NCBI GenBank assembly: GCA_938042195.1
Contig: CALIRQ010000009.1
Span: forward strand, 1,443-65,442
Source: an uncultured archaeon
Lineage (GTDB): Archaea; Thermoproteota; Bathyarchaeia; 40CM-2-53-6; CALIRQ01
Direction of reading: 5' to 3'
DNA: 64,000 nucleotides
Shown here: positions 3,275 to 16,534 of the stretch, piece after piece
How positions within the stretch are numbered: the first letter of the stretch is position 1
How the letters are laid out: each line of letters begins with the position of its first letter
Translations under genes and position numbers: made by a program
Notes under the pieces: generated by a model
Database searches by the model: none
Seen by the model: the letters and a program-made list of their open reading frames with translations, nothing else
What the model was told of the DNA's origin: nothing

Positions 3275-4225
3275 TTGGAAGAAGAGGGAGATTCCGATAC
3301 CGTAATCGAGGTTGGACAAAGGGCCAAGGCCTGCCCGGAATGCGGCGGCGCCAATATAATAGTGGATTACGAATCCGCCGAGGTCGTGTGCAGAGATTGC
3401 GGCTTCGTAATGGATGAGAAGATAGCGGATACGAGGCCCGAATGGAGGGCCTTCGATGAGGAGCAAAGGGAGAAGAGGGCTCGGGTGGGCGCACCGATAA
3501 CCTATGCCCTCCACGACAAGGGCCTCTCCACGATGATAGATTGGCAGGACAATAAGGTCTTGGGGAAGAGGGATAACCCATCGAAGCAGATGGAGCTCTA
3601 CAAGTTGAGGAAATGGCAGAGGAGGATAAGGGTCTCCGATTCGATCGAGAGGAACTTGGCCGCGGCCCTCGCGGAGATGACCAAGATAGCTGAGGCGCTT
3701 AACCTACCGAAGAACATCGTGGAGACGTCCTCGATCCTTTATCGGAGGGCCATAAAGAAGAGGTTGATAAGGGGTAGATCCATACATACGATGAGCGCCG
3801 CGGCCATATACTTGAGCTGCAGGCAATGCGGGATCCCGAGGACGCTGGATGAAGTAGCGGCGGCATCCAACGTGAGCAAGAAGGAAATAGGGAGGTCCTA
3901 TCGCCTGATATTGAAGGAGATGAGCACCCCCGTTCCGCCCTCGATGGGCGGGAATTACGCGGCTAGGTTCTCGAACAAGCTGGCGATCTCCGGTATGGCC
4001 GAGGCGATAGCGATAAAGATACTCGAGGCGGCGAGGGCCATAAGGCTCACCGGCGGGAGGGGGCCGACCGGGATAGCGGCCGCGGCCACATATATAGCCA
4101 CAGTCCTGACTAACGAGAGGAGGACGCAAAGGGAGGTGGCCGAGGTAGCCAACGTAACCGAGGTAACGATAAGGAATAGATATAAGGAGTTGCTAGAGAG
4201 GATATACATAGAAGTATACGTGTGA
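3275..4225 (+). CDS. tfb: transcription initiation factor IIB (TFB)
   Basis: N-terminal zinc ribbon CPECGGANIIVDYESAEVVCRDCGFV followed by two cyclin-like repeats. TTG start 8 nt after the Gar1 stop, which is a conserved Gar1-TFB adjacency. Confidence 0.9.
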   Translation: MEEEGDSDTVIEVGQRAKACPECGGANIIVDYESAEVVCRDCGFVMDEKIADTRPEWRAFDEEQREKRARVGAPITYALHDKGLSTMIDWQDNKVLGKRDNPSKQMELYKLRKWQRRIRVSDSIERNLAAALAEMTKIAEALNLPKNIVETSSILYRRAIKKRLIRGRSIHTMSAAAIYLSCRQCGIPRTLDEVAAASNVSKKEIGRSYRLILKEMSTPVPPSMGGNYAARFSNKLAISGMAEAIAIKILEAARAIRLTGGRGPTGIAAAATYIATVLTNERRTQREVAEVANVTEVTIRNRYKELLERIYIEVYV

Positions 4226-4274
4226 TGAGGGAATTTATGGCTGGTGAAGCCAGCCGCAGATCGCCGCTTTGGAT

Positions 4275-4988
4275 ATGAAGCTGTTTTTGATATTGGCCGA
4301 GTCGTCCCTTGAGCCAGTGCCGGATGAGATAAGGGACCATCCGGCGGTTCGGAAGAGCGCTAGGAGGAGGGGGAGGGATCCGGGCGAGTTGATATTGGAT
4401 AGGAGCCTCCATCATTTCGCCATGAGGGGCCTCCCGAACTCGGGGAAGAGGGGAAGGCCGGATATAGTGCACATGGCCCTGCTGGGAGCCCTGGGGACCC
4501 CCTTGAACTGGGAAGGGCTGCTCTCCATCCACGTGCACACAATAGGGGATATGATAATTGATGTGAACCCCGGCGTGAGGTTGCCCAGGAATTATAACAG
4601 GTTCTTGGGACTCATGGAGCAACTCTTCGCCAAAGGCTCCATAACCTCCACCTCCGGGGAGGTGTTGCTGAGGGCGCGCCCCGGCCGGATGCAGGACCTC
4701 CTCGAAGCCCTGAACCCCTCGATTGTATTGGCCTTCACGAGGGCCGGCTCCCCGAGGACGATGAAGGATTGCGTCGGGGAGCTCATGGGCCGCGATAGGC
4801 CGGCCGCCATAATTGGTGGATTCCCTCACGGGGGATTCTCCGAGGGGACATTGGAGCTCGCGGACGCATTGGTCAGGATCGATCGCGAATCGCTCGATGC
4901 CTCCGTAGTCGTTTCGAGGCTGATATACGAGTTTGAGGAAGCCCTCGGCCTGCCGGAGAGGCGGGTGCGGGGCCCGGATCAAACTTAA
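4275..4988 (+). CDS. nep1: ribosomal RNA small subunit methyltransferase Nep1 (Emg1, SPOUT)
   Basis: ESSLEPVP, KRGRPDIVHMALL, LSIHVHT and PRNYNRFLGLMEQL motifs. ATG at 4275 preferred over the listed TTG at 4269. Confidence 0.85.
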   Translation: MKLFLILAESSLEPVPDEIRDHPAVRKSARRRGRDPGELILDRSLHHFAMRGLPNSGKRGRPDIVHMALLGALGTPLNWEGLLSIHVHTIGDMIIDVNPGVRLPRNYNRFLGLMEQLFAKGSITSTSGEVLLRARPGRMQDLLEALNPSIVLAFTRAGSPRTMKDCVGELMGRDRPAAIIGGFPHGGFSEGTLELADALVRIDRESLDASVVVSRLIYEFEEALGLPERRVRGPDQT

Positions 4989-5014
4989 TAAAAGCGCCCC
5001 ATATCGGAGCACGG

Positions 5015-5401
5015 GTGCTTCATTTGCCGGAGGACGAAGAACTGGAGCTCCTGAAGAGGAGGAAGCTCCAAGAGATCCAAAGAAGGCTCGCGATGGGGCA
5101 GGAGACCATCGAGGGGCCTAGGGGCGAGGACCGGGGGGCGGCGTTGAGGGGGGTCCTCGTCGGGAGGGCTTGGGAGGTGCTCGCGGCGGCTAGGAGGCAA
5201 TACCCGAGGGCTGCGGAGAGTGTGGAAGCAGCTTTGGCGAAGGCGATCTCCGAGGGGAAGATCAGGGGCCCAATAACGGGGGAGCAGCTCTTATGGCTGT
5301 TCAGATACTTGGGGCTGAATGTGAGGTTGGAGACGAGGATCAGGATCTACGAGCATGGGGAGCTCAAATCGATAGCGGAGAAGCTGAGGGAAGGGGATTA
5401 G
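5015..5401 (+). CDS. second PDCD5-like dsDNA-binding family protein (paralog)
   Basis: EDEELELLKRRKLQEIQRRL N-terminus, then AAESVEAALAKAISEGKIRGPITGEQLLWLF and a basic tail. Same architecture as 1662..1991. Confidence 0.55.
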   Translation: MLHLPEDEELELLKRRKLQEIQRRLAMGQETIEGPRGEDRGAALRGVLVGRAWEVLAAARRQYPRAAESVEAALAKAISEGKIRGPITGEQLLWLFRYLGLNVRLETRIRIYEHGELKSIAEKLREGD

Positions 5402-5435
5402 GCTCGGAAAGGGGCCCAGGCGGGCGGATCGGCCC

Positions 5436-6869
5436 CTATCCAGCCCCGCGGCCATATCTTCTCAGGACCCCATCCAGATGGGATAGGAAATCTAGGCAAC
5501 GCTCCGCGCAATCCCCAATGTGGCCCCTCGCGTCGAGGAGCTCTTCGATCTCCTCGGGGCCAAGCCTTTTGGATATCTCCTCATCCCCCTTCAGAAGATC
5601 CGGCAATGGATTCTCGAGACCCTCCATCACGGCCCTCCATGCCCTTTGGGAATGGGCCCTCAGCCTCTCGTGGGCCTCCTGCCGATCCATTCCCCTTTCC
5701 ACGAGCTTCATCAAAACCCTCTCCAAGCCGGCCCATGGGCCGAACCTCCTCAAATTCTCCTCCACGGCCCTCTCGTTAACCACCAAGCCTTTAAGTATCT
5801 CCAAGTAGAGCCTCAAGCACTCATCGATTGCCAGGAACGCCTCCGGCAGGATCACCCTCCTGTTCGCGGAATCGTCCAGGGTCCTCTCGAATATCGCGCA
5901 GGCGGCATTATCCCAAGCGACCTTCGGGAGGGCGCTGACGTATCTGGCTAGGGAGCACATCCTCTCCGATTTGATCGGGTTCCTCTTGAACGGCATGGCC
6001 GAGGATCCTACTTGCCTCTCTGAGAACGGCTCCTGGAGCTCCCCGAGGGTCGGGGATTGGAAATGCCTCAAATCCATCCCGAACTTATGGGCGCTCTGGG
6101 CGATGGAGGACAAGGCCGATAGAACTAGGAAATCCACCTTCCTCGGATAAGTTTGGGTCGAAACCGGGAAGCTCTCAATCCCGAGCCCTTCCATAACTCT
6201 CTTCTCCATATCCTTCGGTTTGCCCTTGCCCGATAATATGGCCGCGAAGCTGGCAGATGAGCCGACGGCGCCCTTGATCCCCTTGCCCTTGAGGGCCTCG
6301 GTCATTACGTATTCGATTAGCCCCAAGTCCAAGATCAAATCTTGGGCATAGTTGGCGAACCTATAGCCCAGGGTCATGGGCTCTGCGGGTTGGAGATGCG
6401 TCCATCCCAAGCACGGGAGGTCCCTATAGCGCGCTATCAGGCCCAAGAGGGCCTCCAAACAATCCAATAGCCTTTCGATTACTATCCCCATAGCCCCCCT
6501 CATTCTTAGGATGTCCGCGTTATCCTCTATATCCGCGGACGTTGCTCCCCAATGGAGCTTCCCCCCGCCGATCGGGCATCGCTCGGAGTAGGATTTCAGC
6601 TCGGCCATGAGGTCATGCTTTATCTCGCGTTCTATCTCCAGCGCCCTCTCCATGTCGATGTTCTCGGCGCCCATCTTGGATTTGATGTCCTCCAATTCCT
6701 TCGGGGATACCAGGCCGTACTCCGCTTGGGCCTCGGCCAACTCGACCCAGATCCGCCTCCATAGGGCCCTGTAGTGGATCTCCGAGAAGATCCTCCTCAT
6801 CTCATCGCTCCCATAGCGCCAAGTGAAGGGGGATTTGAAGGAACCATAGCCTTGGTTCGATCGCTTCAT
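5436..6869 (-). CDS. purB: adenylosuccinate lyase
   Basis: Fumarate-lyase signature GSSAMPFKRNP; 477 aa; adjacent to the pur operon. Confidence 0.85.
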   Translation of the reverse strand: MKRSNQGYGSFKSPFTWRYGSDEMRRIFSEIHYRALWRRIWVELAEAQAEYGLVSPKELEDIKSKMGAENIDMERALEIEREIKHDLMAELKSYSERCPIGGGKLHWGATSADIEDNADILRMRGAMGIVIERLLDCLEALLGLIARYRDLPCLGWTHLQPAEPMTLGYRFANYAQDLILDLGLIEYVMTEALKGKGIKGAVGSSASFAAILSGKGKPKDMEKRVMEGLGIESFPVSTQTYPRKVDFLVLSALSSIAQSAHKFGMDLRHFQSPTLGELQEPFSERQVGSSAMPFKRNPIKSERMCSLARYVSALPKVAWDNAACAIFERTLDDSANRRVILPEAFLAIDECLRLYLEILKGLVVNERAVEENLRRFGPWAGLERVLMKLVERGMDRQEAHERLRAHSQRAWRAVMEGLENPLPDLLKGDEEISKRLGPEEIEELLDARGHIGDCAERCLDFLSHLDGVLRRYGRGAG

Positions 6870-7268: not shown

Positions 7269-7547
7269 ATGAGGGAATATTTGGTCGAGGTAATCATACA
7301 GAACAAGGAGATGGCGAAGGATCCGGAGGGGGAAACGATAGAGAGGGACCTCATCCATAGGGGGGGATACGATTCCATAAGGGCCGTGAGATCGGGCAAA
7401 TACCTTCGAATGCTCGTCAAGGCGGATGGCCCCGAGAGGGCAAGGGAGATTGTGGTTAAGATGTGCAACGAATTGAGGTTGTTCAACCCGGTCGTTCATT
7501 CCTGCTCCGTGAAGGTCAGGGCGAGCGGGAGGAAGGGTGGGGATTGA
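7269..7547 (+). CDS. purS: phosphoribosylformylglycinamidine synthase subunit PurS
   Basis: About 90 aa PurS fold sequence MREYLVEVIIQNKEMAKDPEGETIERDL. GGAGG lies upstream of the ATG. Confidence 0.85.
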   Translation: MREYLVEVIIQNKEMAKDPEGETIERDLIHRGGYDSIRAVRSGKYLRMLVKADGPERAREIVVKMCNELRLFNPVVHSCSVKVRASGRKGGD

Positions 7548-8269
7548 GGATCGCGGTCCTCAACTTCCCGGGATCGAACTGCGAGCTGGACACCATCTAC
7601 GTCCTCCGCCGGCTCCTGAACTTGGATGCGGAGCTCGTATGGCATGAGGCCTTCGATCGATCCGGGTATGACGCCGCCATATTGCCGGGCGGCTTCTCAT
7701 ATGGGGATTACCTCAGGGCCGGGACGATAGCGGCCCATAGCCCGGCCATGAAACACGTGAGGGCCATGGCGGATGAGGGGAAGCCCGTGATAGGCATATG
7801 CAATGGGTTCCAGATGCTGACTGAGGCAGGTTTGCTCCCCGGGGCCCTCCTCAGGAACGAAGGGTTGAGCTTCGTCTGCCGATGGGTTTCGCTGAGGGTG
7901 GAATCCAATAGGAGCGCTTTGACTTGGCTATTGCCCAAGGGGGCGATCATCAGGTTGCCCATCGCCCACGCGGAGGGGCGATACGTTAACGAGAGGCGCG
8001 CGATCCGGGAGCTTTGGAGGAACGGGCAAGTGATCTTGACGTACGTTGACGAGCTGGGCAACCCGACCCCGGATGCCAATCCAAATGGCTCGATGGATAA
8101 CATAGCCGGGATATGCAATGAGCGGGGCAACGTCGTTGGGCTGATGCCACATCCGGAGAGGGGGGCCGAGGGGGTGTTGAGCCCCTTCGGCAGCGAGGAC
8201 GGCCTCATGCTGTTCGAATCGTTGCTCTATTTCATGAATGGGGGGGATCGGATCTGCGGGGCGGGCTGA
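7544..8269 (+). CDS. purQ: phosphoribosylformylglycinamidine synthase glutaminase subunit PurQ
   Basis: [27 protein letters not shown] and HPER motifs. TTG at 7544 overlaps the purS TGA (TTGA). The listed ATG at 7463 would give an atypical 27-aa N-terminal extension. Confidence 0.8.
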
Positions 8270-8286
8270 AGGCGAGGACATCCCTT

Positions 8287-10473
8287 TTGCCGGAGGAGTT
8301 GGATTACGTAATCGGCCAGCTGGGCAGGGAGCCGAACCGCATCGAGCTCGGCATGCTCGAGCTGATGTATTCGGAGCATTGTTCCTACAAGAGCAGCAGG
8401 CCGATCCTGAAGATCCTCCCGAGGGAGGGGCCGAGGGTCCTCGTCGGCCCGGGCTACGACGCCGGTATAGTGGATATAGGAAATGGCTACGTCGTCGCCT
8501 TCAAGATCGAGAGCCACAACCACCCTTCCGCCATAGACCCGTACAACGGCGCCGCCACCGGTATCGGTGGGATCGTTCGCGATATCCTATGCACCAACTG
8601 CAGGCCCGTCGCCCTCTTGGACTCCCTGAGGTTTGGCCCGCCGAGGAAGGGCAGGACCAAATGGTTGTTGAAGTACGTCGTGAAGGGCATATCGGATTAT
8701 GGCAATAGGATCGGCGTCCCCACGGTCGCTGGAGAGGTCGAGTTCGATGAGAGCTTCGAGACCAACTGCTTGGTCAACGTGGCATGCGTCGGCATAGGGA
8801 GGAGGGACTCGATAGTGCTCGCGAAGATGGAGAGCCCCGGGGATTACATAGTATTGATGGGCAGCTCCACTGGGAGGGACGGCATACATGGCGTCACCTT
8901 CGCATCAAAGACCATAACCGCTGAATCGGAGGAGGAGAGGCCCTCCGTCCAGATCGGGGACCCCTTCATGAAGAAGATGATAATCGAGGCCACCTTGGAG
9001 GCGGTCGCGACGGGCTTCGTGGCGGGCTTGAAGGACCTCGGGGGCGCGGGGTTGACGTGCGCGCTGTCCGAGATGTCCTTCAAGGGCGGCACGGGCGTAG
9101 AGGTGGAACTGGAGAGAGTGCACTTGCGGGAGGAGGACATGACGCCCTATGAGATAATGCTATCAGAATCCCAGGAGAGGATGCTTTTCGTCGTAAAGCC
9201 CGAGGGCCTTGAAAGGGTCCTCGGGGTATTCAGGAAATGGGGCCTGCCCCATTCGGTGATCGGGAGGGTCACGGATACCGGGGAGATCTTGGTTAAGTAT
9301 AGGGGCGAAGTGGTCGCTAGGCTGCCCTCCAAGCTATTGGCGGAGGCTCCGGTCCTGCACAGGAGGGCCAAGAGGCCGAGGGATCTCGCCAAGGCGCTCA
9401 AGGTCCCGAAGCCCAGGGAGCCCAAGGACCTCGGGAGGGCATTGGTAAGGTTGCTCTCCTCCCCGAACATAGCGAGCAAGGAGCCCATCTATTCCCAATA
9501 CGACTATGAGGTCGGCATCAGGACGATCGTGAAGCCGGGCGATGGGGACGCGGCGGTCCTGAGGCTGCTCGAGGAGCCGAGGGCGATAGCCGTGAAGGCC
9601 GATTGCAATAGCCGGCATTGCCGCCTCGATCCATTCAACGGCCACGCCGGAGCCGTCGCGGAATCTGCTAGGAACGTCGTGGCGGTCGGCGCCGAGCCGA
9701 TCGCGGCCGTCGATTGTTGCAACTTCGGGAACCCGGAGAGGCCCGAGGTCTTTTGGCAATTCTCGGAGGGGATCAGGGGCCTCTCCTACATGCTCGAGGG
9801 CCTCGGGATCCCATGCGTTGGCGGCAATGTGAGCTTCTACAACGAGGACGAGAGGACCGGTAGGGCGGTGAACCCCACGACCGTCGTAGTGACTTTAGGC
9901 CTCGTTGAGGAACTGGATTGGGTGACGACTATGGCCTTCAAGGAGCACGGCGATGAGATATTCGCCGTCGGGAGGACCTACGCGGAGATGGGGGGATCCG
10001 AGTATTATCATTGGATCCACGGCATTAGCGGCGGCAGGCCCCCGCGCGCATCGCCGGGGAGGGAGAGGTCATCCATGGCGATCGTCAAGGAGGCGATCAG
10101 GAGGGGCTTGATCGACGCGGCCCACGATTGCTCCAAGGGCGGAATCGCGGTGGCTTTGGCCATAATGGCCATAAAGGGGGGATTGGGGATCGATGTGGAT
10201 TTGGGGCGCATACCCCGCTCGGGGGTGGGGCGATTGGACGAGCTATTGTTCTCCGAATCCTACGCGAGGTTCGTCATCTCCGCCCGGCCCGGCTCCGCGC
10301 GCGAGCTCAGGGCCATAGCCGAGAGGCATGGGGGCGCGATCTCGAGGCTGGGGAGGGTGGTCGATTCCTCCGAGCTCTTCATGAGATACGGCGGGAGGGC
10401 GATCCGATGCGGGCTTGGGGAATTGAGGGAGGCGTGGAATGGATCCATGAGGAGGTACTTGGGGGAGCTTTGA
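8287..10473 (+). CDS. purL: phosphoribosylformylglycinamidine synthase II PurL
   Basis: 728 aa. SEHCSYKSS near the N-terminus; duplicated AIR-synthase-like domains. Confidence 0.9.
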   Translation: MPEELDYVIGQLGREPNRIELGMLELMYSEHCSYKSSRPILKILPREGPRVLVGPGYDAGIVDIGNGYVVAFKIESHNHPSAIDPYNGAATGIGGIVRDILCTNCRPVALLDSLRFGPPRKGRTKWLLKYVVKGISDYGNRIGVPTVAGEVEFDESFETNCLVNVACVGIGRRDSIVLAKMESPGDYIVLMGSSTGRDGIHGVTFASKTITAESEEERPSVQIGDPFMKKMIIEATLEAVATGFVAGLKDLGGAGLTCALSEMSFKGGTGVEVELERVHLREEDMTPYEIMLSESQERMLFVVKPEGLERVLGVFRKWGLPHSVIGRVTDTGEILVKYRGEVVARLPSKLLAEAPVLHRRAKRPRDLAKALKVPKPREPKDLGRALVRLLSSPNIASKEPIYSQYDYEVGIRTIVKPGDGDAAVLRLLEEPRAIAVKADCNSRHCRLDPFNGHAGAVAESARNVVAVGAEPIAAVDCCNFGNPERPEVFWQFSEGIRGLSYMLEGLGIPCVGGNVSFYNEDERTGRAVNPTTVVVTLGLVEELDWVTTMAFKEHGDEIFAVGRTYAEMGGSEYYHWIHGISGGRPPRASPGRERSSMAIVKEAIRRGLIDAAHDCSKGGIAVALAIMAIKGGLGIDVDLGRIPRSGVGRLDELLFSESYARFVISARPGSARELRAIAERHGGAISRLGRVVDSSELFMRYGGRAIRCGLGELREAWNGSMRRYLGEL

Positions 10474-11915
10474 GGCCGGGGAAGCGCGAGGCCTGCGGCG
10501 TGATGGGCATCTCCTTGGAGCGCGGGAACATATCCCCGCTCATATATTACGGCCTGATGGCCCTGCAGCATAGGGGCCAGGAATCCTGTGGGATCTCCGT
10601 ATACGATGGAAGGGCGCTCAGGACCGTGCGTAGATATGGGCTCGTGGGCGAGGAACTCCAGCGCGTGGCGAGGGCTTTAGGGGGGAGGGTGGGCATAGGC
10701 CACGTGAGATACTCCACCCTTGGGGGGCCCTCATTGATCAACGCGCAGCCCGTCCCCATAAGGATGGGCGGGGAGACGTTCTCGATAGCCCATAACGGCA
10801 CCATAGTCAATTATGAGCAACTGAGGGACTACCTCGCGGGAAAGGGCATCGGGCTGAGGACCAAATCGGACTCGGAGGCGATCTTGAGGATCTTCCTCGA
10901 CTCCTACAGGAGGGGCTGCGATGTATTCGGGAGCTTGGAATCCTGCTCCGAGAGGATCGAGGGCGGCTATTCCATGGTTATGGCGAACTCCAAAGGGGAG
11001 CTGATAGCGGCCAGGGATCCGCTCGGCCTCAGGCCGCTTTGCATGGGAAATTCGGGGAACTCGATCGCCATAGCATCGGAGAGCGTCGCCCTCGATATAA
11101 ACTCCCTAACCCTAATCGGAGACGTCGAGCCGGGGACAGCCGTCTTCGTTGGGGGGAACGATGTGGAGGTCGAGAGGTTCGCCAGCTGCCCGCGGAGGGC
11201 CTATTGCATGTTCGAATACGTATACTTCAGCAGGCCGGACTCGATCTTGGAGGGGAGGAGCGTATACGACGTGAGGTTGCGCCTCGGGAGGAACTTGGCG
11301 GATACGATCGATGGCGATATCGACAGCATAGTCCCGGTCCCCGATACGTCGAGGACGGCGGCCGAGGGATTGTCCAGGATGACGGGGATCCCGGTCGCGG
11401 AGGGCCTGATAAAGAACAGGTACGTCCACAGGACGTTCATAATGCCGACCCAAGAAGCGAGGGAGGGCGCCGTAAGGATGAAGCTGAACCCGCTCAAATC
11501 CGTAATAAAGGGGAAAAGGATAGTCTTGGTCGATGATAGCATAGTGAGGGGCACCACTTTGAAGAACATAGTGGCCATGCTTAAATCCTCGGGGGCGAAG
11601 GAGGTCCACGTGAGGATCACCTGCCCTCCGATAATATCCCCGTGCTTCTACGGGATAGACATATCGAGCCGCTCCGAGCTCATAGCCGCCAATAACTCCG
11701 TTGAAGCGATCGAGAGGATCCTCGGCGCCGATAGCTTGGTATATCAAAGCTTGGAGGGTCTGATAGACGCGATAGGGCTGCCGAGGGGGGACCTCTGCAA
11801 CGCCTGCTTGACGGGCGAGTACCCGACCCCGATGGCCCAGGAGAGGGCCGAGGAGGACGCCCGGAGGCCCCCGAGTCAGATCCCGAGTGGGATGGAGGGC
11901 ATATGGCGGGCATAA
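10470..11915 (+). CDS. purF: amidophosphoribosyltransferase PurF (with short propeptide)
   Basis: CGVMGIS...YYGLMALQHRGQESCGISVYDG Ntn-glutaminase N-terminus, PRTase motif VLVDDSIVRGTT and C-terminal Cys cluster. TTG at 10470 overlaps the purL stop (TTGA) and gives a 7-aa propeptide before Cys1. The listed upstream part of the ORF (from 10128) overlaps purL. Confidence 0.8.
   Translation: MRPGKREACGVMGISLERGNISPLIYYGLMALQHRGQESCGISVYDGRALRTVRRYGLVGEELQRVARALGGRVGIGHVRYSTLGGPSLINAQPVPIRMGGETFSIAHNGTIVNYEQLRDYLAGKGIGLRTKSDSEAILRIFLDSYRRGCDVFGSLESCSERIEGGYSMVMANSKGELIAARDPLGLRPLCMGNSGNSIAIASESVALDINSLTLIGDVEPGTAVFVGGNDVEVERFASCPRRAYCMFEYVYFSRPDSILEGRSVYDVRLRLGRNLADTIDGDIDSIVPVPDTSRTAAEGLSRMTGIPVAEGLIKNRYVHRTFIMPTQEAREGAVRMKLNPLKSVIKGKRIVLVDDSIVRGTTLKNIVAMLKSSGAKEVHVRITCPPIISPCFYGIDISSRSELIAANNSVEAIERILGADSLVYQSLEGLIDAIGLPRGDLCNACLTGEYPTPMAQERAEEDARRPPSQIPSGMEGIWRA
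10540..10609 (+). repeat. 70-nt segment identical to 11958..12027 (copy A, inside purF)
   Basis: Direct comparison: tcatatattacggcctgatggccctgcagcataggggccaggaatcctgtgggatctccgtatacgatgg is identical in both paralogs, while flanking sequence diverges. Confidence 0.85.
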
Positions 11916-13246
11916 TAGGGCTATACGGCTACGATCCCGTTTGGAAGATGGCCAGGTTCATATATTACGGCCTGATGGCCCTGCAGCATAGGGGCCAGGA
12001 ATCCTGTGGGATCTCCGTATACGATGGGGAGCGCATCCTTTGCGATGGCCGCGCCGGCATGGTCGATCAGGCCTTCGGGGAGGCGGAGCTCGAGGCTTTG
12101 AGGGGATGGATCGGGATTGGCCAAGTAGACCCCGAGCCGCCGAAGGGGCGCATCGTCTCCAAGCCCTTCTTCGCCAAATGCCCGATTGGGGTGTCGCTGG
12201 TTTGCGATGGCTCGGCGGCCGGCGCGGTCGAGGCTGCGAGGGAGCGCGGCTTTGCGGCCGAGGATCCGCAGGGCGCCTTGGCGGCCCTCCTCTCCAAGGA
12301 GCTGGCCGATGGGGACCCCTTCGGCGCCGTTGAGAGGATCACGGGGAGGCTTGGGGGCGCTTGCAATTTCATAGCCCTCACCGAGCGCGGGGAGATGATC
12401 GCCTATAGGGGCGAGCTTGGCATAAAGCCCATGGTCGTTGGGAACTTCGGGTTCGATTACGGGGCCATCGCGTCGGAGAGCTGCGCCTTGGACGTCATCG
12501 GCGCGGAACTGAAGGCCGACCTATCGCCCGGGGAGGTGTATCTCTTCACGCCCTGGAGCATAGAGAGGAGGAGGATCGGGGAGGCGGATCCGAAATATTG
12601 CGCCTTCGAATACGTATACTTGGCTAGGCCCGATTCCATAATAAACGGGAAGAGCGTTTATGAGGTGAGGAGGAGGATCGGGGAGAGGTTGGCCTTGGAG
12701 AGCGACGTTAGGGATGCGGACTCCGTCTTGGCGGTGCCCGAAACGGCCATCCCATTCGCCTTATCCTTCGCGAACTTTACTAAGAAGCCGATCGAGATGG
12801 GGTTCGTCCAAACCGGAAGGAGGGTCCGGAGCGCGATAAGGCCGACCCAGTTTGAAAGGCTTGTGGGCGTACAGCTGAAATTGAACCCAATAAGGGCCGC
12901 AATGGCCGGGAGGAGGGTCATCCTGGTGGACGATAGCGTCGTTAGGGGCACGACGACCAAGAACACGGTGAAGATAATGAGGAACAGGATGGGGGCCAAG
13001 GAGGTCCATGTGAGGATAGGCAGCCCCAGGATAATCTCCCAATGCCCCTTCGGGATGGAGGTGCCAGATAAGGACGAGCTCATAGCGGCTCATCTCAACG
13101 AGGAGGAGGTGGGCAAGGTAGTCGAGGCGGATACGTTCCATTGGCTCAGCTTGGAGGGCCTGGTGGAGGCCATAGGGCTGCCGAGGGAGAGCCTCTGCCT
13201 CGGTTGCTTCACTGGGGAATATCCGGGGCGTGGTGATCGAAATTGA
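11903..13246 (+). CDS. PurF-like amidophosphoribosyltransferase paralog lacking the N-terminal Cys nucleophile
   Basis: Begins MAGIIGLYG (Ala where Cys1 is expected). Retains YYGLMALQHRGQESCGISVYDG, VILVDDSVVRGTT and the C-terminal CxxC region. 447 aa. Confidence 0.8.
   Translation: MAGIIGLYGYDPVWKMARFIYYGLMALQHRGQESCGISVYDGERILCDGRAGMVDQAFGEAELEALRGWIGIGQVDPEPPKGRIVSKPFFAKCPIGVSLVCDGSAAGAVEAARERGFAAEDPQGALAALLSKELADGDPFGAVERITGRLGGACNFIALTERGEMIAYRGELGIKPMVVGNFGFDYGAIASESCALDVIGAELKADLSPGEVYLFTPWSIERRRIGEADPKYCAFEYVYLARPDSIINGKSVYEVRRRIGERLALESDVRDADSVLAVPETAIPFALSFANFTKKPIEMGFVQTGRRVRSAIRPTQFERLVGVQLKLNPIRAAMAGRRVILVDDSVVRGTTTKNTVKIMRNRMGAKEVHVRIGSPRIISQCPFGMEVPDKDELIAAHLNEEEVGKVVEADTFHWLSLEGLVEAIGLPRESLCLGCFTGEYPGRGDRN
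11958..12027 (+). repeat. 70-nt segment identical to 10540..10609 (copy B, inside purF paralog)
   Basis: See copy A. Confidence 0.85.
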
Positions 13247-14724
13247 AGGTGCTTCTGGTCGGGGAGGGGGCTAGAGAGCACGCGATAGCCAGCGCCATAT
13301 GCAGGAGCCCACAAGGCCCCAGGCTCTACGCGGCGATGAGATCGATGAACCCCGGGATCCGAGAGCTTTGCCTCAGAAGCGGCGGGGATGTGGCCCTAGG
13401 GGATTCGATGGACCCCGAGTTCATCTCCAAGGCGGCCGATAGGTTCTCGGTCGATTTCGTCTTCATTGGCCCGGAGGAGCCCCTTTTCAGAGGGGCCGCC
13501 AACGCGGTCGAGGATATGGGCATACCGTGCATAGGGGCGAGGCGCGAGGCCGCGGAGATAGAGATGTCCAAGGCTTTCATGAGGAGGCTGATGTGGAGGC
13601 ATAAAATACCAGGGAGGCTCAGGTTCCAAGCCTTCAGGAGCATCGAGGATGCGATCGCCTACATAGAGGAATACGCAGAAAGCGTGGCGATAAAGCCAGC
13701 TAGGCAGGCCGGTGGGAAGGGCGTCAAGGTGATAGCGGATTTCCAAGCCTATCTCAGCAAGGAGAAGGGCCATGTGAAGGCGGAGCACGCAAAGGCCATA
13801 GAGGCGAAGTATATGAAGGGGTATGCCGATATAGAGGATAGGATATTGATCGAGGAACGGGTCGAGGGCCCGGAGTACACAATACAGATGTTCACGGATG
13901 GCGATTCGGTCGCCCCGTTCCCATTGGTCCAGGACAATAAGAACGCCTACGATATGGATATAGGACCAGAAACGGGTGGGATGGGCTCGATCTCCGGGAA
14001 TGGGATGCTCCTCCCCTTCATAACGCGGGAGGAGTACGATGCCTCGGTCGATATCGTGAGGAGATGCGTGAAGGCCATCGAATCCGAGCTCGGCGTGAAA
14101 TACAAGGGGGTCATATCGGGGCAGATGATGCTCACCCCGATATGGGGGCCGACGATAATAGAGTTCTACAGCCGATTCGGGGATCCTGAAGGCGTCAACG
14201 TCCTTCCGCTTTTAAGGACCGATATGGTGGAGATAATGGAGGCGATCGCCTCGGCCAAGTTGCATAAGGTGAAGATGGAGTTCGAGGAGGCGGCGACGGT
14301 CGTCAAATGCTTCGCGCCCAAGGGATATCCGGAGCGCAGGGACCTAGCGGCCGGGCATCCAGTTCGGATAGATGCGGAGGCCATAAGGGCCATGGGATGC
14401 GAGGTCTTCTATGGCTCGGTGGATCTGGCGCAAGATGGGGGGCTGATCACCGGCGGATCCCGGATCTGCGAGATATTCGCGAAGGGCGAGGAAATCCCGG
14501 AGATAAGCGATAGGATAGAGCGCTGCTCGCCCCTCATATATTGCTTGGATGGTTGGGGGGTATTCCACAGGAGCGATATAGGATCGGCGGCGCTCCTTAG
14601 TAGGAGGATCGAGCAATCGAACTTGATAAGGGACGTATACAAGTATAGGATGGGGAAGGGACTGATCGGGATGGATATCGATTGGATCCCCGGGAAGGGG
14701 AAGATAGTCCATTCGGTGTGGTGA
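13243..14724 (+). CDS. purD: phosphoribosylamine--glycine ligase PurD
   Basis: MKVLLVGEGAREHAIA N-terminus and ATP-grasp core; 493 aa with C-terminal extension. Confidence 0.85.
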   Translation: MKVLLVGEGAREHAIASAICRSPQGPRLYAAMRSMNPGIRELCLRSGGDVALGDSMDPEFISKAADRFSVDFVFIGPEEPLFRGAANAVEDMGIPCIGARREAAEIEMSKAFMRRLMWRHKIPGRLRFQAFRSIEDAIAYIEEYAESVAIKPARQAGGKGVKVIADFQAYLSKEKGHVKAEHAKAIEAKYMKGYADIEDRILIEERVEGPEYTIQMFTDGDSVAPFPLVQDNKNAYDMDIGPETGGMGSISGNGMLLPFITREEYDASVDIVRRCVKAIESELGVKYKGVISGQMMLTPIWGPTIIEFYSRFGDPEGVNVLPLLRTDMVEIMEAIASAKLHKVKMEFEEAATVVKCFAPKGYPERRDLAAGHPVRIDAEAIRAMGCEVFYGSVDLAQDGGLITGGSRICEIFAKGEEIPEISDRIERCSPLIYCLDGWGVFHRSDIGSAALLSRRIEQSNLIRDVYKYRMGKGLIGMDIDWIPGKGKIVHSVW

Positions 14725-14730
14725 TTCGCA

Positions 14731-16134
14731 ATGGCCTTGTTAATGCCCTTCAGGGATTCCCTCGGGACGCCGCTCTACGAGGGCTCCACTAAGGTCCTGC
14801 TCTTAGGGGCAGGGGAATTGGGGAAGGAGATAGCCATCGAGGCCCAAAGGCTGGGCGTTGAAACGGTCACTGTGGATAGATACGATAACCCGCCAGCCGC
14901 CCAAGTAGCCCATAGGCATTATACGATCGATATGAGGGACGGGGCGGCCCTGAAGGCCGTGGTCCGTAGGGAGCGGCCGGATGCCATAATCCCGGAGGTG
15001 GAGGCCATAAACACCGATGCCCTCCTAGAGCTCGAGGAGGAGGGGTTCTTCGTCGTTCCGAGGGCAAGGGCCACGAAGATAACCATGGATAGGATCGCGC
15101 TGAGGAGGCTGGCGGCCGAAGAGGCTGGCGTTCCAACGACGCCTTATAAATTCGCGAGCGATCCGGAGGAGCTGGAGGCGGCTTGCGAGGAGATAGGCTT
15201 CCCCTGCATAGTCAAGGCTAGAATGAGCTCCGGCGGGCTGGGCTCGAGCGTAGTCTTCCGCAGGGATCAGGTCCGGGATGCTTATGAAACGGCCAGGAGG
15301 AAGGCCAGGGGTTATGGGGGCGAGGTCATAGTGGAGGGCCTCTGCCGATTCGATTTCGAGATAACCGAGCTGGCCCTAGCCCATTACGATCCGAACGGCG
15401 AGGTTGGGATATCTTTCCCGAAGCCTGTTGGGCACCTGAGGTCGGGCAGCCATTACCACGTCAGCTGGCAGCCGTTCGTTTTGATCGATGAGGAAACTGG
15501 CGCGAGCAAGTCCCCGCTCCAAGCCTTCGGGGGCCAGCTCCATATGTCCGAGGACGTCACCACTCGCGACCTCCTTTGGAGATCGGAACACGATGGCGAG
15601 GTGCTCTCGGCCGAGACCGCGAGGGAGGTCGAGGAGCAATGCTACGAGATAGCTGGAAAGGTTGTGAGGAAGCTGATAGGGGAGGGAGGCGCGATTGAGG
15701 GCCTTGGGATATTCGGCTGCGAGCTCTTCGTCAAGGTCGATGAAGGGGGCAAGCCAAAGGTATACTTCAACGAGATATCGCCCAGGCCGCACGATACCGG
15801 GATGGTGACCATAGCGACCCAGGACCTCTCAGAGGCAGCGCTCCACGTAAGGGCCGTTCTGGGCCTTCCGATAGCTGGGATCAAGGTCCTAACGCCCGGT
15901 GCGGCGCACGTCATCCTATCCAGCGAGGATTCTAAATGGGCCCCCGGCTATGGGCGCTTGAGCAGGGCGCTTGGGATCCCGGGCGTCAGGGTCCTGCTCT
16001 TCGGGAAGCCATCCACTTATAAGGAAAGAAGGCTAGGCTTGGCGTTGGCGATATCCGACGATATACTCGACGCTAGGAGGAAGGCCATGGAGGCGGCCCA
16101 TTTGATAGAAGGGGGCATAAGATATGGCCGATGA
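14731..16134 (+). CDS. purT: formate-dependent phosphoribosylglycinamide formyltransferase PurT
   Basis: [24 protein letters not shown]...[23 protein letters not shown]...IIPEVEAI...[15 protein letters not shown] matches PurT rather than PurK. Confidence 0.75.
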
Positions 16135-16534
16135 GGCACCGATCGTGGAGGTGATCCTCGGCAGCGAGAGCGATAGGCCCGTGGGAGAGAGGGTGGCGAA
16201 GGAGCTTGAGAGGCTCGGGATACCATACGCCCTATCGATCCTATCGGCCCATAGGGATCCGGACGCGTTAGAGGAGCGCATTCGGACATCTAAGGCGAAG
16301 GTATTCATAGCCGTCGCGGGCCTCGCCGCGCATCTCCCGGGCTTCATCGCCTCTAGGACCCGGAGGCCCGTCATCGGGGTCCCGGTCAGCGCCAAGCTCG
16401 GGGGACTTGACGCCCTCCTATCCATAGCTCAAATGCCCAAGGGCGTCCCCGTGGCTTGCGTCGGGATCGATAACGGCGAGAACGCGGCGATATTGGCAGC
16501 TAGGATATTGGGGATTGAGGAGCGCGGTCCATGA
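16124..16534 (+). CDS. purE: phosphoribosylaminoimidazole carboxylase catalytic subunit / mutase PurE
   Basis: [10 protein letters not shown]...[27 protein letters not shown]. No purK in the window. Confidence 0.85.

Follow-up and report, generated by a model that had tools for sequence, protein, structure and literature searches.

What does a homologue of the first enzyme of purine biosynthesis do once it has lost its catalytic cysteine, and what is its relation to the intact copy beside it? This question is raised by a stretch of 64,000 nucleotides (hereafter the window) of contig CALIRQ010000009.1 from an uncultured Bathyarchaeia-type archaeon, where two genes for homologues of PurF, the glutamine phosphoribosyl pyrophosphate (PRPP) amidotransferase, follow each other on the + strand and the second encodes alanine at the position of the N-terminal nucleophile (Ntn) cysteine. 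There is little room for doubt that this second gene is an ortholog of the archaeal paralog PurF', and thus a member of that family, which arose by an ancient duplication of PurF and is translated together with purF and purD. The best overall explanation, to which a probability of about 0.5 can be given, is that PurF' is a glutaminase-dead binder of a phosphoribosyl ligand acting with PurF at the first purine step.

The tandem pair

The two genes and the codon that separates them functionally lie as follows.

10470 to 11915, + strand: purF, canonical glutamine PRPP amidotransferase (TIGR01134, 466.6 bits; cutoff 350)
11903 to 13246, + strand: purF' (PurF-prime), predicted glutaminase-dead PurF paralog of 447 aa (TIGR01134, 298 bits, below the 350 cutoff; PurF' clade)
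11906 to 11908, + strand: Ala2 codon (GCG) of purF', at the position of the Ntn nucleophile Cys1 (from sequence and alignment)

Translation of purF starts at a TTG codon (10470) overlapping the purL stop codon, and the N-terminus of its product (MRPGKREA-CGVMGI) consists of an 8-residue propeptide followed by Cys9 (TGC, 10494-10496), an arrangement like that of Bacillus subtilis PurF; every canonical catalytic residue is in place. The purF' gene starts at ATG 11903, overlaps purF by 13 nt and encodes the N-terminus MAGIIGLYGYD. The two products are 40% identical over their full length. PurF' matches TIGR01134 over residues 7-441 (E = 1.6e-88) and the Protein Data Bank entry 1ao0 (E = 1.6e-73), and a Pfam search of the protein did not detect the glutamine-amidotransferase domain.

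Both statements of the first-pass annotation about this pair, namely that two PurF homologues stand in tandem on the + strand and that the second (MAGI) lacks the Ntn cysteine, are borne out by these coordinates and profile matches and by relatives 87-91% identical to PurF' which share its N-terminus. The same annotation had named an upstream in-frame start supplying a cysteine, or a sequencing error at the alanine codon, as possible causes of a false impression. No start codon lies between the preceding in-frame stop and ATG 11903, and the 50 in-frame codons upstream of ATG 11903 contain neither a start codon nor a cysteine. Three independent relatives (P0001, P0002 and L001, with 91%, 87% and 87% identity) also begin MAGIIG, and GCG is unlike TGC or TGT at all three positions, so a single-base error is no explanation.

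Family membership

A cysteine-less PurF paralog of Crenarchaeota was named PurF' by Brown, Hoopes, White & Sarisky in 2011 (Biol Direct 6:63, PMC3261824), who found that every purine-synthesising crenarchaeon has two PurF-like proteins falling into two clusters, one with the N-terminal cysteine and the other, PurF', without it. The order purF/(purF')/purD was given there as ST1496/(ST1497)/ST1498 in Sulfolobus tokodaii and as Msed_1981/(Msed_1982)/Msed_1983 (PMC3261824), and the order purF-purF'-purD in the window is that of ST1496/(ST1497)/ST1498. An exact-sequence look-up of the window PurF' returned no record, and a literature search for a functional characterisation of PurF' after Brown et al. 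2011 found none.

A homology search with the window PurF' gave thousands of matches. The best 120, which were inspected, are archaeal, mostly begin M-[A/G/S/T/P/V]-G and share 48-91% identity with it, against 40% for its own neighbour PurF. A neighbour-joining (NJ) tree of 88 sequences was then built from PurF' and partner PurF of 27 loci, the window, representatives at 50% identity and B. subtilis PurF, in line with the phylogeny that had been proposed as a check. The window protein falls in a clade of 40 members (the window, all 27 locus PurF' and 12 representatives) with bootstrap support of 200/200, and this clade includes the cultured Sulfolobales Sulfurisphaera ohwakuensis (WP_390530961.1) and Sulfodiicoccus acidiphilus (WP_126449071.1), while all partner PurF and bacterial PurF lie outside it. 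A signature is common to the window and Sulfolobales PurF': Trp14, the loss of Arg72, the changes R306 to G and F312 to A or M, and four cysteines. All four features that define PurF' are therefore found in the window protein: homology to PurF, absence of Cys1, purF and other pur genes as neighbours, and a place in one NJ clade with crenarchaeal PurF'. The window adds a Bathyarchaeia-type member to a paralog already published in 2011.

Distribution and synteny

A genome scan with one genome per species, in which a 48-sequence alignment served as the query, found at least 579 species genomes with a PurF' relative, spread over Thermoproteota and the Asgard archaea. The best 80 loci, which were inspected, belong to Bathyarchaeia, Nitrososphaeria, Methanomethylicia, Thermoprotei, Brockarchaeota and several Asgard lineages (Freya-, Jord-, Njord-, Baldr-, Wukong- and Hodarchaeota); among them the closest relative is that of a Bathyarchaeota metagenome-assembled genome (MAG), L001, with 87% identity. 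An upstream purF-type open reading frame (ORF) is present in 73 loci, and in 70 of these the gap from purF stop to purF' start is -13 to +35 nt, with a 4-nt overlap being common. In the tight tandem loci purD comes next after purF', and in the inspected loci it often overlaps the purF' stop. Wherever the N-terminus of the partner purF lies within the locus, it encodes a propeptide followed by CG.

A few loci depart from this arrangement. Four (L006, L042, L045 and L058) have purF' without purF in the upstream flank examined, and in two (L002 and L003) purF lies 1-2.8 kb from purF'. Binning assigns the genomes of L042 and L045 to Methanocellales and that of L058 to Undinarchaeota, unexpected hosts which may be mis-binned. 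A frameshift or assembly error may explain the upstream purF of L021, present in three ORF pieces (4096-5508), and that of L032, which is highly divergent at 30% identity (4611-5819).

Over a large part of the Archaea, the tandem purF/purF' is the usual arrangement. The claim that the pair is a distinctive feature of this operon did not survive this comparison: given at least 579 species genomes, a tight tandem in 70 of 73 loci and publication in 2011, it is the rule among Thermoproteota and many Asgard archaea, and ordinary as a discovery. What makes it a question worth asking is the role of a protein found in hundreds of archaeal species that is more conserved than its parent enzyme and has lost the use of glutamine.

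Loss of the glutamine site

In E. coli PurF, Arg73 binds the glutamine carboxylate and Asn101 forms the oxyanion hole. Residues were compared between 63 partner PurF and 78 PurF', with numbering taken from a reconstructed B. subtilis PurF (for residues 70 to 126, adding one gives the E. coli number). Cys1, His70, Arg72, Tyr73, Thr75, Asn101 and Asp126 are 98-100% conserved in the 63 PurF and replaced in the PurF' set. In E. coli numbering, the window PurF' has Ala for Cys1, Asp for Arg73, Pro for Tyr74, Pro for Thr76, Asp for Asn101 and Pro for Asp127, with Gly102 kept. The multiple alignment that had been suggested as a check of cysteine loss and of retained phosphoribosyltransferase (PRTase) residues thereby confirmed both, and revealed a loss wider than Cys1.

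A minority of PurF' keep the propeptide and Cys1, yet these too are without Arg72 and Tyr73. They comprise L008 (Bathyarchaeia), L010/L014 (Freyarchaeota) and L012/L015/L023 (Jordarchaeia), as well as P0006, P0015, P0017, P0023 and others. The NJ tree places them in nested positions close to the window PurF' and not at the base; either the cysteine disappeared in many separate events, or conversion brought the N-terminus back from purF. Since Arg72 is lost even where the cysteine is kept, glutamine binding, beyond the nucleophile, is gone from the whole family. With all residues that bind or activate glutamine lost, PurF' cannot be a glutamine amidotransferase, and on these substitutions we consider it highly probable that the protein is glutaminase-dead. 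At 298 bits it also falls short of the 350 set for the glutamine PRPP amidotransferase (EC 2.4.2.14) equivalog and lacks the Ntn catalytic set, and genes of the PurF' type should not carry the annotation amidophosphoribosyltransferase (EC 2.4.2.14).

The phosphoribosyltransferase half and the iron-sulfur cysteines

The C-terminal half presents a different picture, in which the following elements can be located.

12929 to 12955, + strand: PRPP / 5-phosphate-binding loop DDSVVRGTT, residues 343-351 (by alignment)
12599 to 13207, + strand: span with the four putative [4Fe-4S] ligand cysteines C233, C381, C432 and C435 (aligned to the B. subtilis ligands)
12800 to 12892, + strand: PurF' flexible loop, residues 300-330, GFVQTGRRVRSAIRPTQFERLVGVQLKLNPI (near-invariant in the family)

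The first-pass annotation was right that the PRPP-binding loop and the C-terminal cysteines are retained (DDSVVRGTT; C233, C381, C432, C435). In the loop pattern DDSxxRG[T/N]T the residues D, D, S, R and G do not vary, and the threonine positions hold T or N, then T, in all tabulated homologues; the four putative cluster-ligand cysteines are invariant in the PurF' family. The flexible loop follows an almost invariant family pattern, GFxxTGRxVRSAIxPTQFERxxGVQLKLNPI, and its arginine (equivalent to E. coli Arg332; R309 in the window PurF' and R310 in the family comparison) is invariant, as is Arg26-Gly27.

Alongside this conservation stand changes that are fixed and specific to the family, namely R306 to G, Y307 to R, F312 to A (E. 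coli Phe334), A286 to F and an inserted invariant Trp14. The new invariants of PurF' (W14, F19 and F184) are aromatic or hydrophobic; further positions invariant specifically in PurF' are G183, P284-F285, G305 and A311. In E. coli PurF, Tyr74 and the Phe334/Ile335 segment line the ammonia (NH3) channel; in PurF', Tyr74 (E. coli numbering) is replaced by Pro, Ser, Ala or Thr, and Phe334 by Ala.

An AlphaFold2 (AF2) model of PurF' has a predicted local distance difference test score (pLDDT) of 89 and a predicted template modelling score (pTM) of 0.87. Its sole long segment of low pLDDT is the flexible loop, as expected for a mobile loop. The model superposes on B. subtilis PurF (1ao0) over the full length with a TM-score of 0.87 and about 34% identity in the structural alignment. 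As modelled, PurF' keeps the complete two-domain PurF fold together with the putative Fe-S cluster ligands.

Evolutionary constraint and gene conversion

Between the window and L001, the ratio of nonsynonymous to synonymous substitution rates (dN/dS) is 0.127 for purF' (0.136 in the N domain and 0.118 in the C domain) and 0.098 for purF, and both PurF' domains are under purifying selection. Over 59 genomes with complete purF, purF' and purD, the mean pairwise distance is 0.72 for PurF' versus 0.98 for PurF. In the comparison of 78 PurF' with 63 partner PurF, mean conservation of the C domain (PRTase) is 0.74 versus 0.63. The residue after the initiator methionine in PurF' comes in every case from the set A, P, T, S, G, C and V, which permits removal of the methionine, suggesting that the mature N-terminus is still needed by the Ntn fold and must still fit the buried Ntn position. 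Because of the dN/dS values, the slow divergence, the conservation and the confident AF2 model, PurF' is a functional protein and not a decaying copy.

The two paralogs also share a stretch of identical DNA.

10540 to 10609, + strand: purF copy of a 70-nt identical tract, encoding IYYGLMALQHRGQESCGISVYDG (exact match)
11958 to 12027, + strand: purF' copy of the same 70-nt tract (exact match)

In L001 the corresponding place holds an identical tract of 60 nt (about 3641-3700 and 5056-5115), and in the other loci the median longest exact match between purF and purF' is 12 nt. The tract encodes the Arg26-Gly27 region, conserved in both the PurF and PurF' families. At the synonymous sites where the window and L001 disagree, the two paralogs within each genome have the same base, so the tract has been homogenised within each genome by gene conversion. 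An assembly chimera as the source of the 70-nt tract was rejected on the same observation, the L001 tract having genome-specific synonymous variants in both paralogs.

Possible functions

The preferred reading holds that PurF' would bind PRPP or a related 5-phosphoribosyl ligand and would work with PurF at the first purine step. Three observations together narrow the hypotheses: the erased glutamine site, the hyper-conserved PRTase half with two invariant channel or loop substitutions, and the tight translational coupling. Judged by the intact loop motif, binding of a phosphoribosyl ligand is quite likely. Its chemistry is less certain. PurF' was proposed by Brown et al. as a possible ammonia-dependent PRPP aminotransferase needing experimental test (PMC3261824), that is, an enzyme which would use ammonia directly and form phosphoribosylamine (PRA) from PRPP and free NH3. 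The proposal is supported by E. coli PurF Cys1 mutants that lose glutamine-dependent activity and keep NH3-dependent activity (Mei & Zalkin 1989, as cited in PMC3261824), and by the replacement of bulky channel residues, since small residues in place of Tyr74 and Phe334 could open the PurF' site to free NH3. For these reasons ammonia-dependent PRA synthesis is tentatively preferred as the mechanism of PurF', at somewhat less than even odds. PurF' may well be assembled with PurF in a mixed oligomer, catalytic or purely regulatory; the tight coupling of purF and purF' makes such an oligomer plausible, and physical association of the two proteins appears about evenly balanced between yes and no. 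The candidate functions listed in the first-pass annotation (an ammonia-dependent enzyme, a regulatory pseudo-amidotransferase, a PurF partner) were reasonable ones.

Several points weigh against PurF' as a ligand-binding partner of PurF at this step. Canonical PurF itself uses NH3 in vitro, which leaves a dedicated co-transcribed NH3 enzyme without obvious regulatory logic. In PurF' the place of Lys326 (E. coli numbering), which contacts PRPP from the flexible loop, is taken by Q, R, S or T, and the VPDS motif of the pyrophosphate (PPi) loop has become VPET, so catalysis by PurF' could be impaired. A mirror-tree comparison of PurF, PurF' and PurD over the 59 loci gave distance correlations of r 0.86 (partial r 0.67) for PurF'-PurD and r 0.77 (partial r 0.37) for PurF-PurF'; the latter being below the former, there is no specific support for a PurF-PurF' complex, and the signal as a whole is weak and ambiguous and is not taken as evidence of one. 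A PurF-PurF' fusion was sought among the 150 best of 1.84 billion representatives and none has two full-length matched stretches. The activity, substrate and oligomeric state of PurF' are all inferred. Lastly, the marine Nitrosopumilales that Brown et al. listed (PMC3261824) make purines without PurF', and PurF' is therefore dispensable in some lineages.

The chief rival makes PurF' a non-catalytic pseudoenzyme subunit, which would form a hetero-oligomer with PurF, taking the place of PurF subunits in the dimer or tetramer, and would tune the stability, Fe-S maturation or nucleotide feedback inhibition of PurF. The phosphoribosyl site of PurF' would then sense a regulatory nucleotide or PRPP instead of catalysing a reaction. 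The near-universal adjacency of purF and purF', with overlaps of the translational-coupling type, suits a subunit of this kind, as does a partner PurF which is fully canonical and should be self-sufficient. The loop residues equivalent to Lys326, Arg328 and Tyr329 are changed in PurF', and the homologous residues of B. subtilis PurF contribute to inter-subunit nucleotide sites. Purifying selection on an N domain predicted to be catalytically dead is what an interface or scaffold would experience, and the aromatic or hydrophobic character of W14, F19 and F184 points the same way. However, conservation of the flexible loop and the PRPP loop goes beyond the needs of a simple scaffold, and neither a fusion among the 150 best representatives nor an excess of PurF/PurF' co-evolution was found, which leaves this explanation possible but on the unlikely side. 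A second rival assigns PurF' to the hand-over of PRA: it would bind PRA, or make it from NH3, dock PurD and shield the unstable intermediate. PRA is short-lived, especially at high temperature, and many host lineages are thermophiles, judged by the sources of the MAGs; purF' always lies between purF and purD, purD often overlapping its stop, the 5-phosphoribosyl-binding loop is kept, and PurF' distances track PurD best (r 0.86, partial r 0.67). Channelling of PRA from PurF to PurD had been proposed earlier, as cited by Brown et al. (references 25 and 26 of PMC3261824). Yet the mirror-tree comparison is weak evidence, explicable by saturation in PurF, which evolves faster; contact between PurF' and PurD is inferred from gene order and distance correlation, and PurF' also occurs in MAGs labelled Nitrosopumilales or Nitrososphaerales, so that an adaptor of this kind seems improbable. 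Taken more broadly, the view that PurF' is no aminotransferase and is instead an obligatory non-catalytic partner, either a prozyme-like activator or regulator of PurF or an adaptor handing PRA to PurD, remains a doubtful one. If it were true, the first purine step in most Thermoproteota and Asgard archaea would be a new PurF-PurF'(-PurD) assembly.

A duplicate in decay, a wrongly called start, or an error of sequencing or assembly is hardly credible. The score below the TIGR01134 cutoff and the lack of a Pfam glutamine-amidotransferase (GATase) match would fit decay, and a 70-nt exact repeat could in principle be a mis-assembly, but the 447-aa ORF is intact with dN/dS of 0.13 in both domains, the family is maintained in several phyla and diverges less rapidly than PurF, no upstream start or cysteine exists, independent assemblies have the same N-terminus, and the tract pattern in L001 is that of gene conversion. 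Pseudogene, wrong start and sequencing error were accordingly rejected on the dN/dS values, the upstream codons and the independent assemblies.

A different candidate function was suggested by fold: PurO has the Ntn fold. PurF' as the inosine monophosphate (IMP) cyclohydrolase missing from Crenarchaeota and Thaumarchaeota (PMC3261824, PMC6486802) was rejected as a general explanation, because Nitrosopumilus and Cenarchaeum are without either PurF' or a known cyclohydrolase and because PurF' keeps a PRPP-type site.

The surrounding gene cluster

The pair lies inside a purine-biosynthesis cluster, as had been claimed at first reading, which occupies 7269-16534 of the + strand in the order purS-Q-L-F-F'-D-T-E. 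The other pur genes are the following.

5436 to 6869, - strand: purB, adenylosuccinate lyase, divergent from the pur cluster (TIGR00928, 379.5 bits; cutoff 326.2)
7269 to 7547, + strand: purS (TIGR00302, 51 bits; cutoff 39)
7463 to 8269 (ORF limits), + strand: purQ (TIGR01737, 305.5 bits; cutoff 177.8)
8287 to 10473, + strand: purL (TIGR01736, 938.7 bits)
13243 to 14724, + strand: purD, with a 4-nt overlap with the purF' stop (TIGR00877, 346.9 bits; cutoff 288)
14731 to 16134, + strand: purT, formate-dependent glycinamide ribonucleotide (GAR) formyltransferase (NF006766, 482 bits; cutoff 339)
16124 to 16534, + strand: purE (TIGR01162, 161.7 bits; cutoff 149.6)

The TIGR01737 profile aligns from residue 29 of the purQ ORF onward, so the true start of purQ is probably near 7545. 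For the purS product, NF004450 ('hypothetical protein'; 85.5 bits, cutoff 96) gives a higher score than the PurS equivalogs do, and the purD product runs about 40 aa past the end of the TIGR00877 profile. PurT has 467 aa against profiles of 380-396 positions and its profile match is split into two stretches, which together indicate an insertion of about 70 aa starting after about residue 260. Upstream of the cluster lies a gene for an archaeal transcription factor B (TFB; 3275-4225). In Rfam searches over the 64-kb window (1-64000) no family reached its gathering score and no tRNA or rRNA was found, and promoter and terminator scans of the window gave nothing above chance.

Comparison with known systems

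PurF' has in common with the canonical Fe-S PurF of B. subtilis (1ao0/1gph) the two-domain fold, the four cluster cysteines, the PRPP loop and the flexible-loop arginine. It differs from it in the replacement of Phe334 by Ala, in changes at the equivalents of Arg328 and Tyr329, in the absence of a propeptide and in falling below the TIGR01134 cutoff. The E. coli Cys1 mutants are a precedent for an ammonia-dependent reading of PurF', although as point mutants they have an otherwise intact glutamine site and NH3 channel, both of which are remodelled in PurF'.

Dead paralogs are known as partners of active enzymes elsewhere, such as HisZ with HisG and the prozyme of trypanosomatid S-adenosylmethionine decarboxylase (AdoMetDC). 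In both, as with PurF', an impaired paralog is kept beside or together with the active enzyme, and they may serve as a working analogy that carries no claim of membership.

Among PurF homologues, Mlab_0150 of Methanocorpusculum (PMC3261824) and the proteins P0133, P0137 and P0146 are paralogs with serine replacing Cys1, resembling PurF' in lacking the cysteine. The latter three differ from PurF' in lying outside its clade and in keeping the canonical PRTase loop residues K304, R306 and F312, and they look like independent, recent degenerations similar to Mlab_0150 rather than PurF'. The closest comparison is with the PurF' of Brown et al. themselves, from which the window case differs in three respects: its host is an uncultured Bathyarchaeia-type archaeon, a lineage outside that paper; its glutaminase half is even more eroded, with no Pfam GATase match and GHVRY changed to GQVDP; and its purF' is in ongoing gene conversion with purF.

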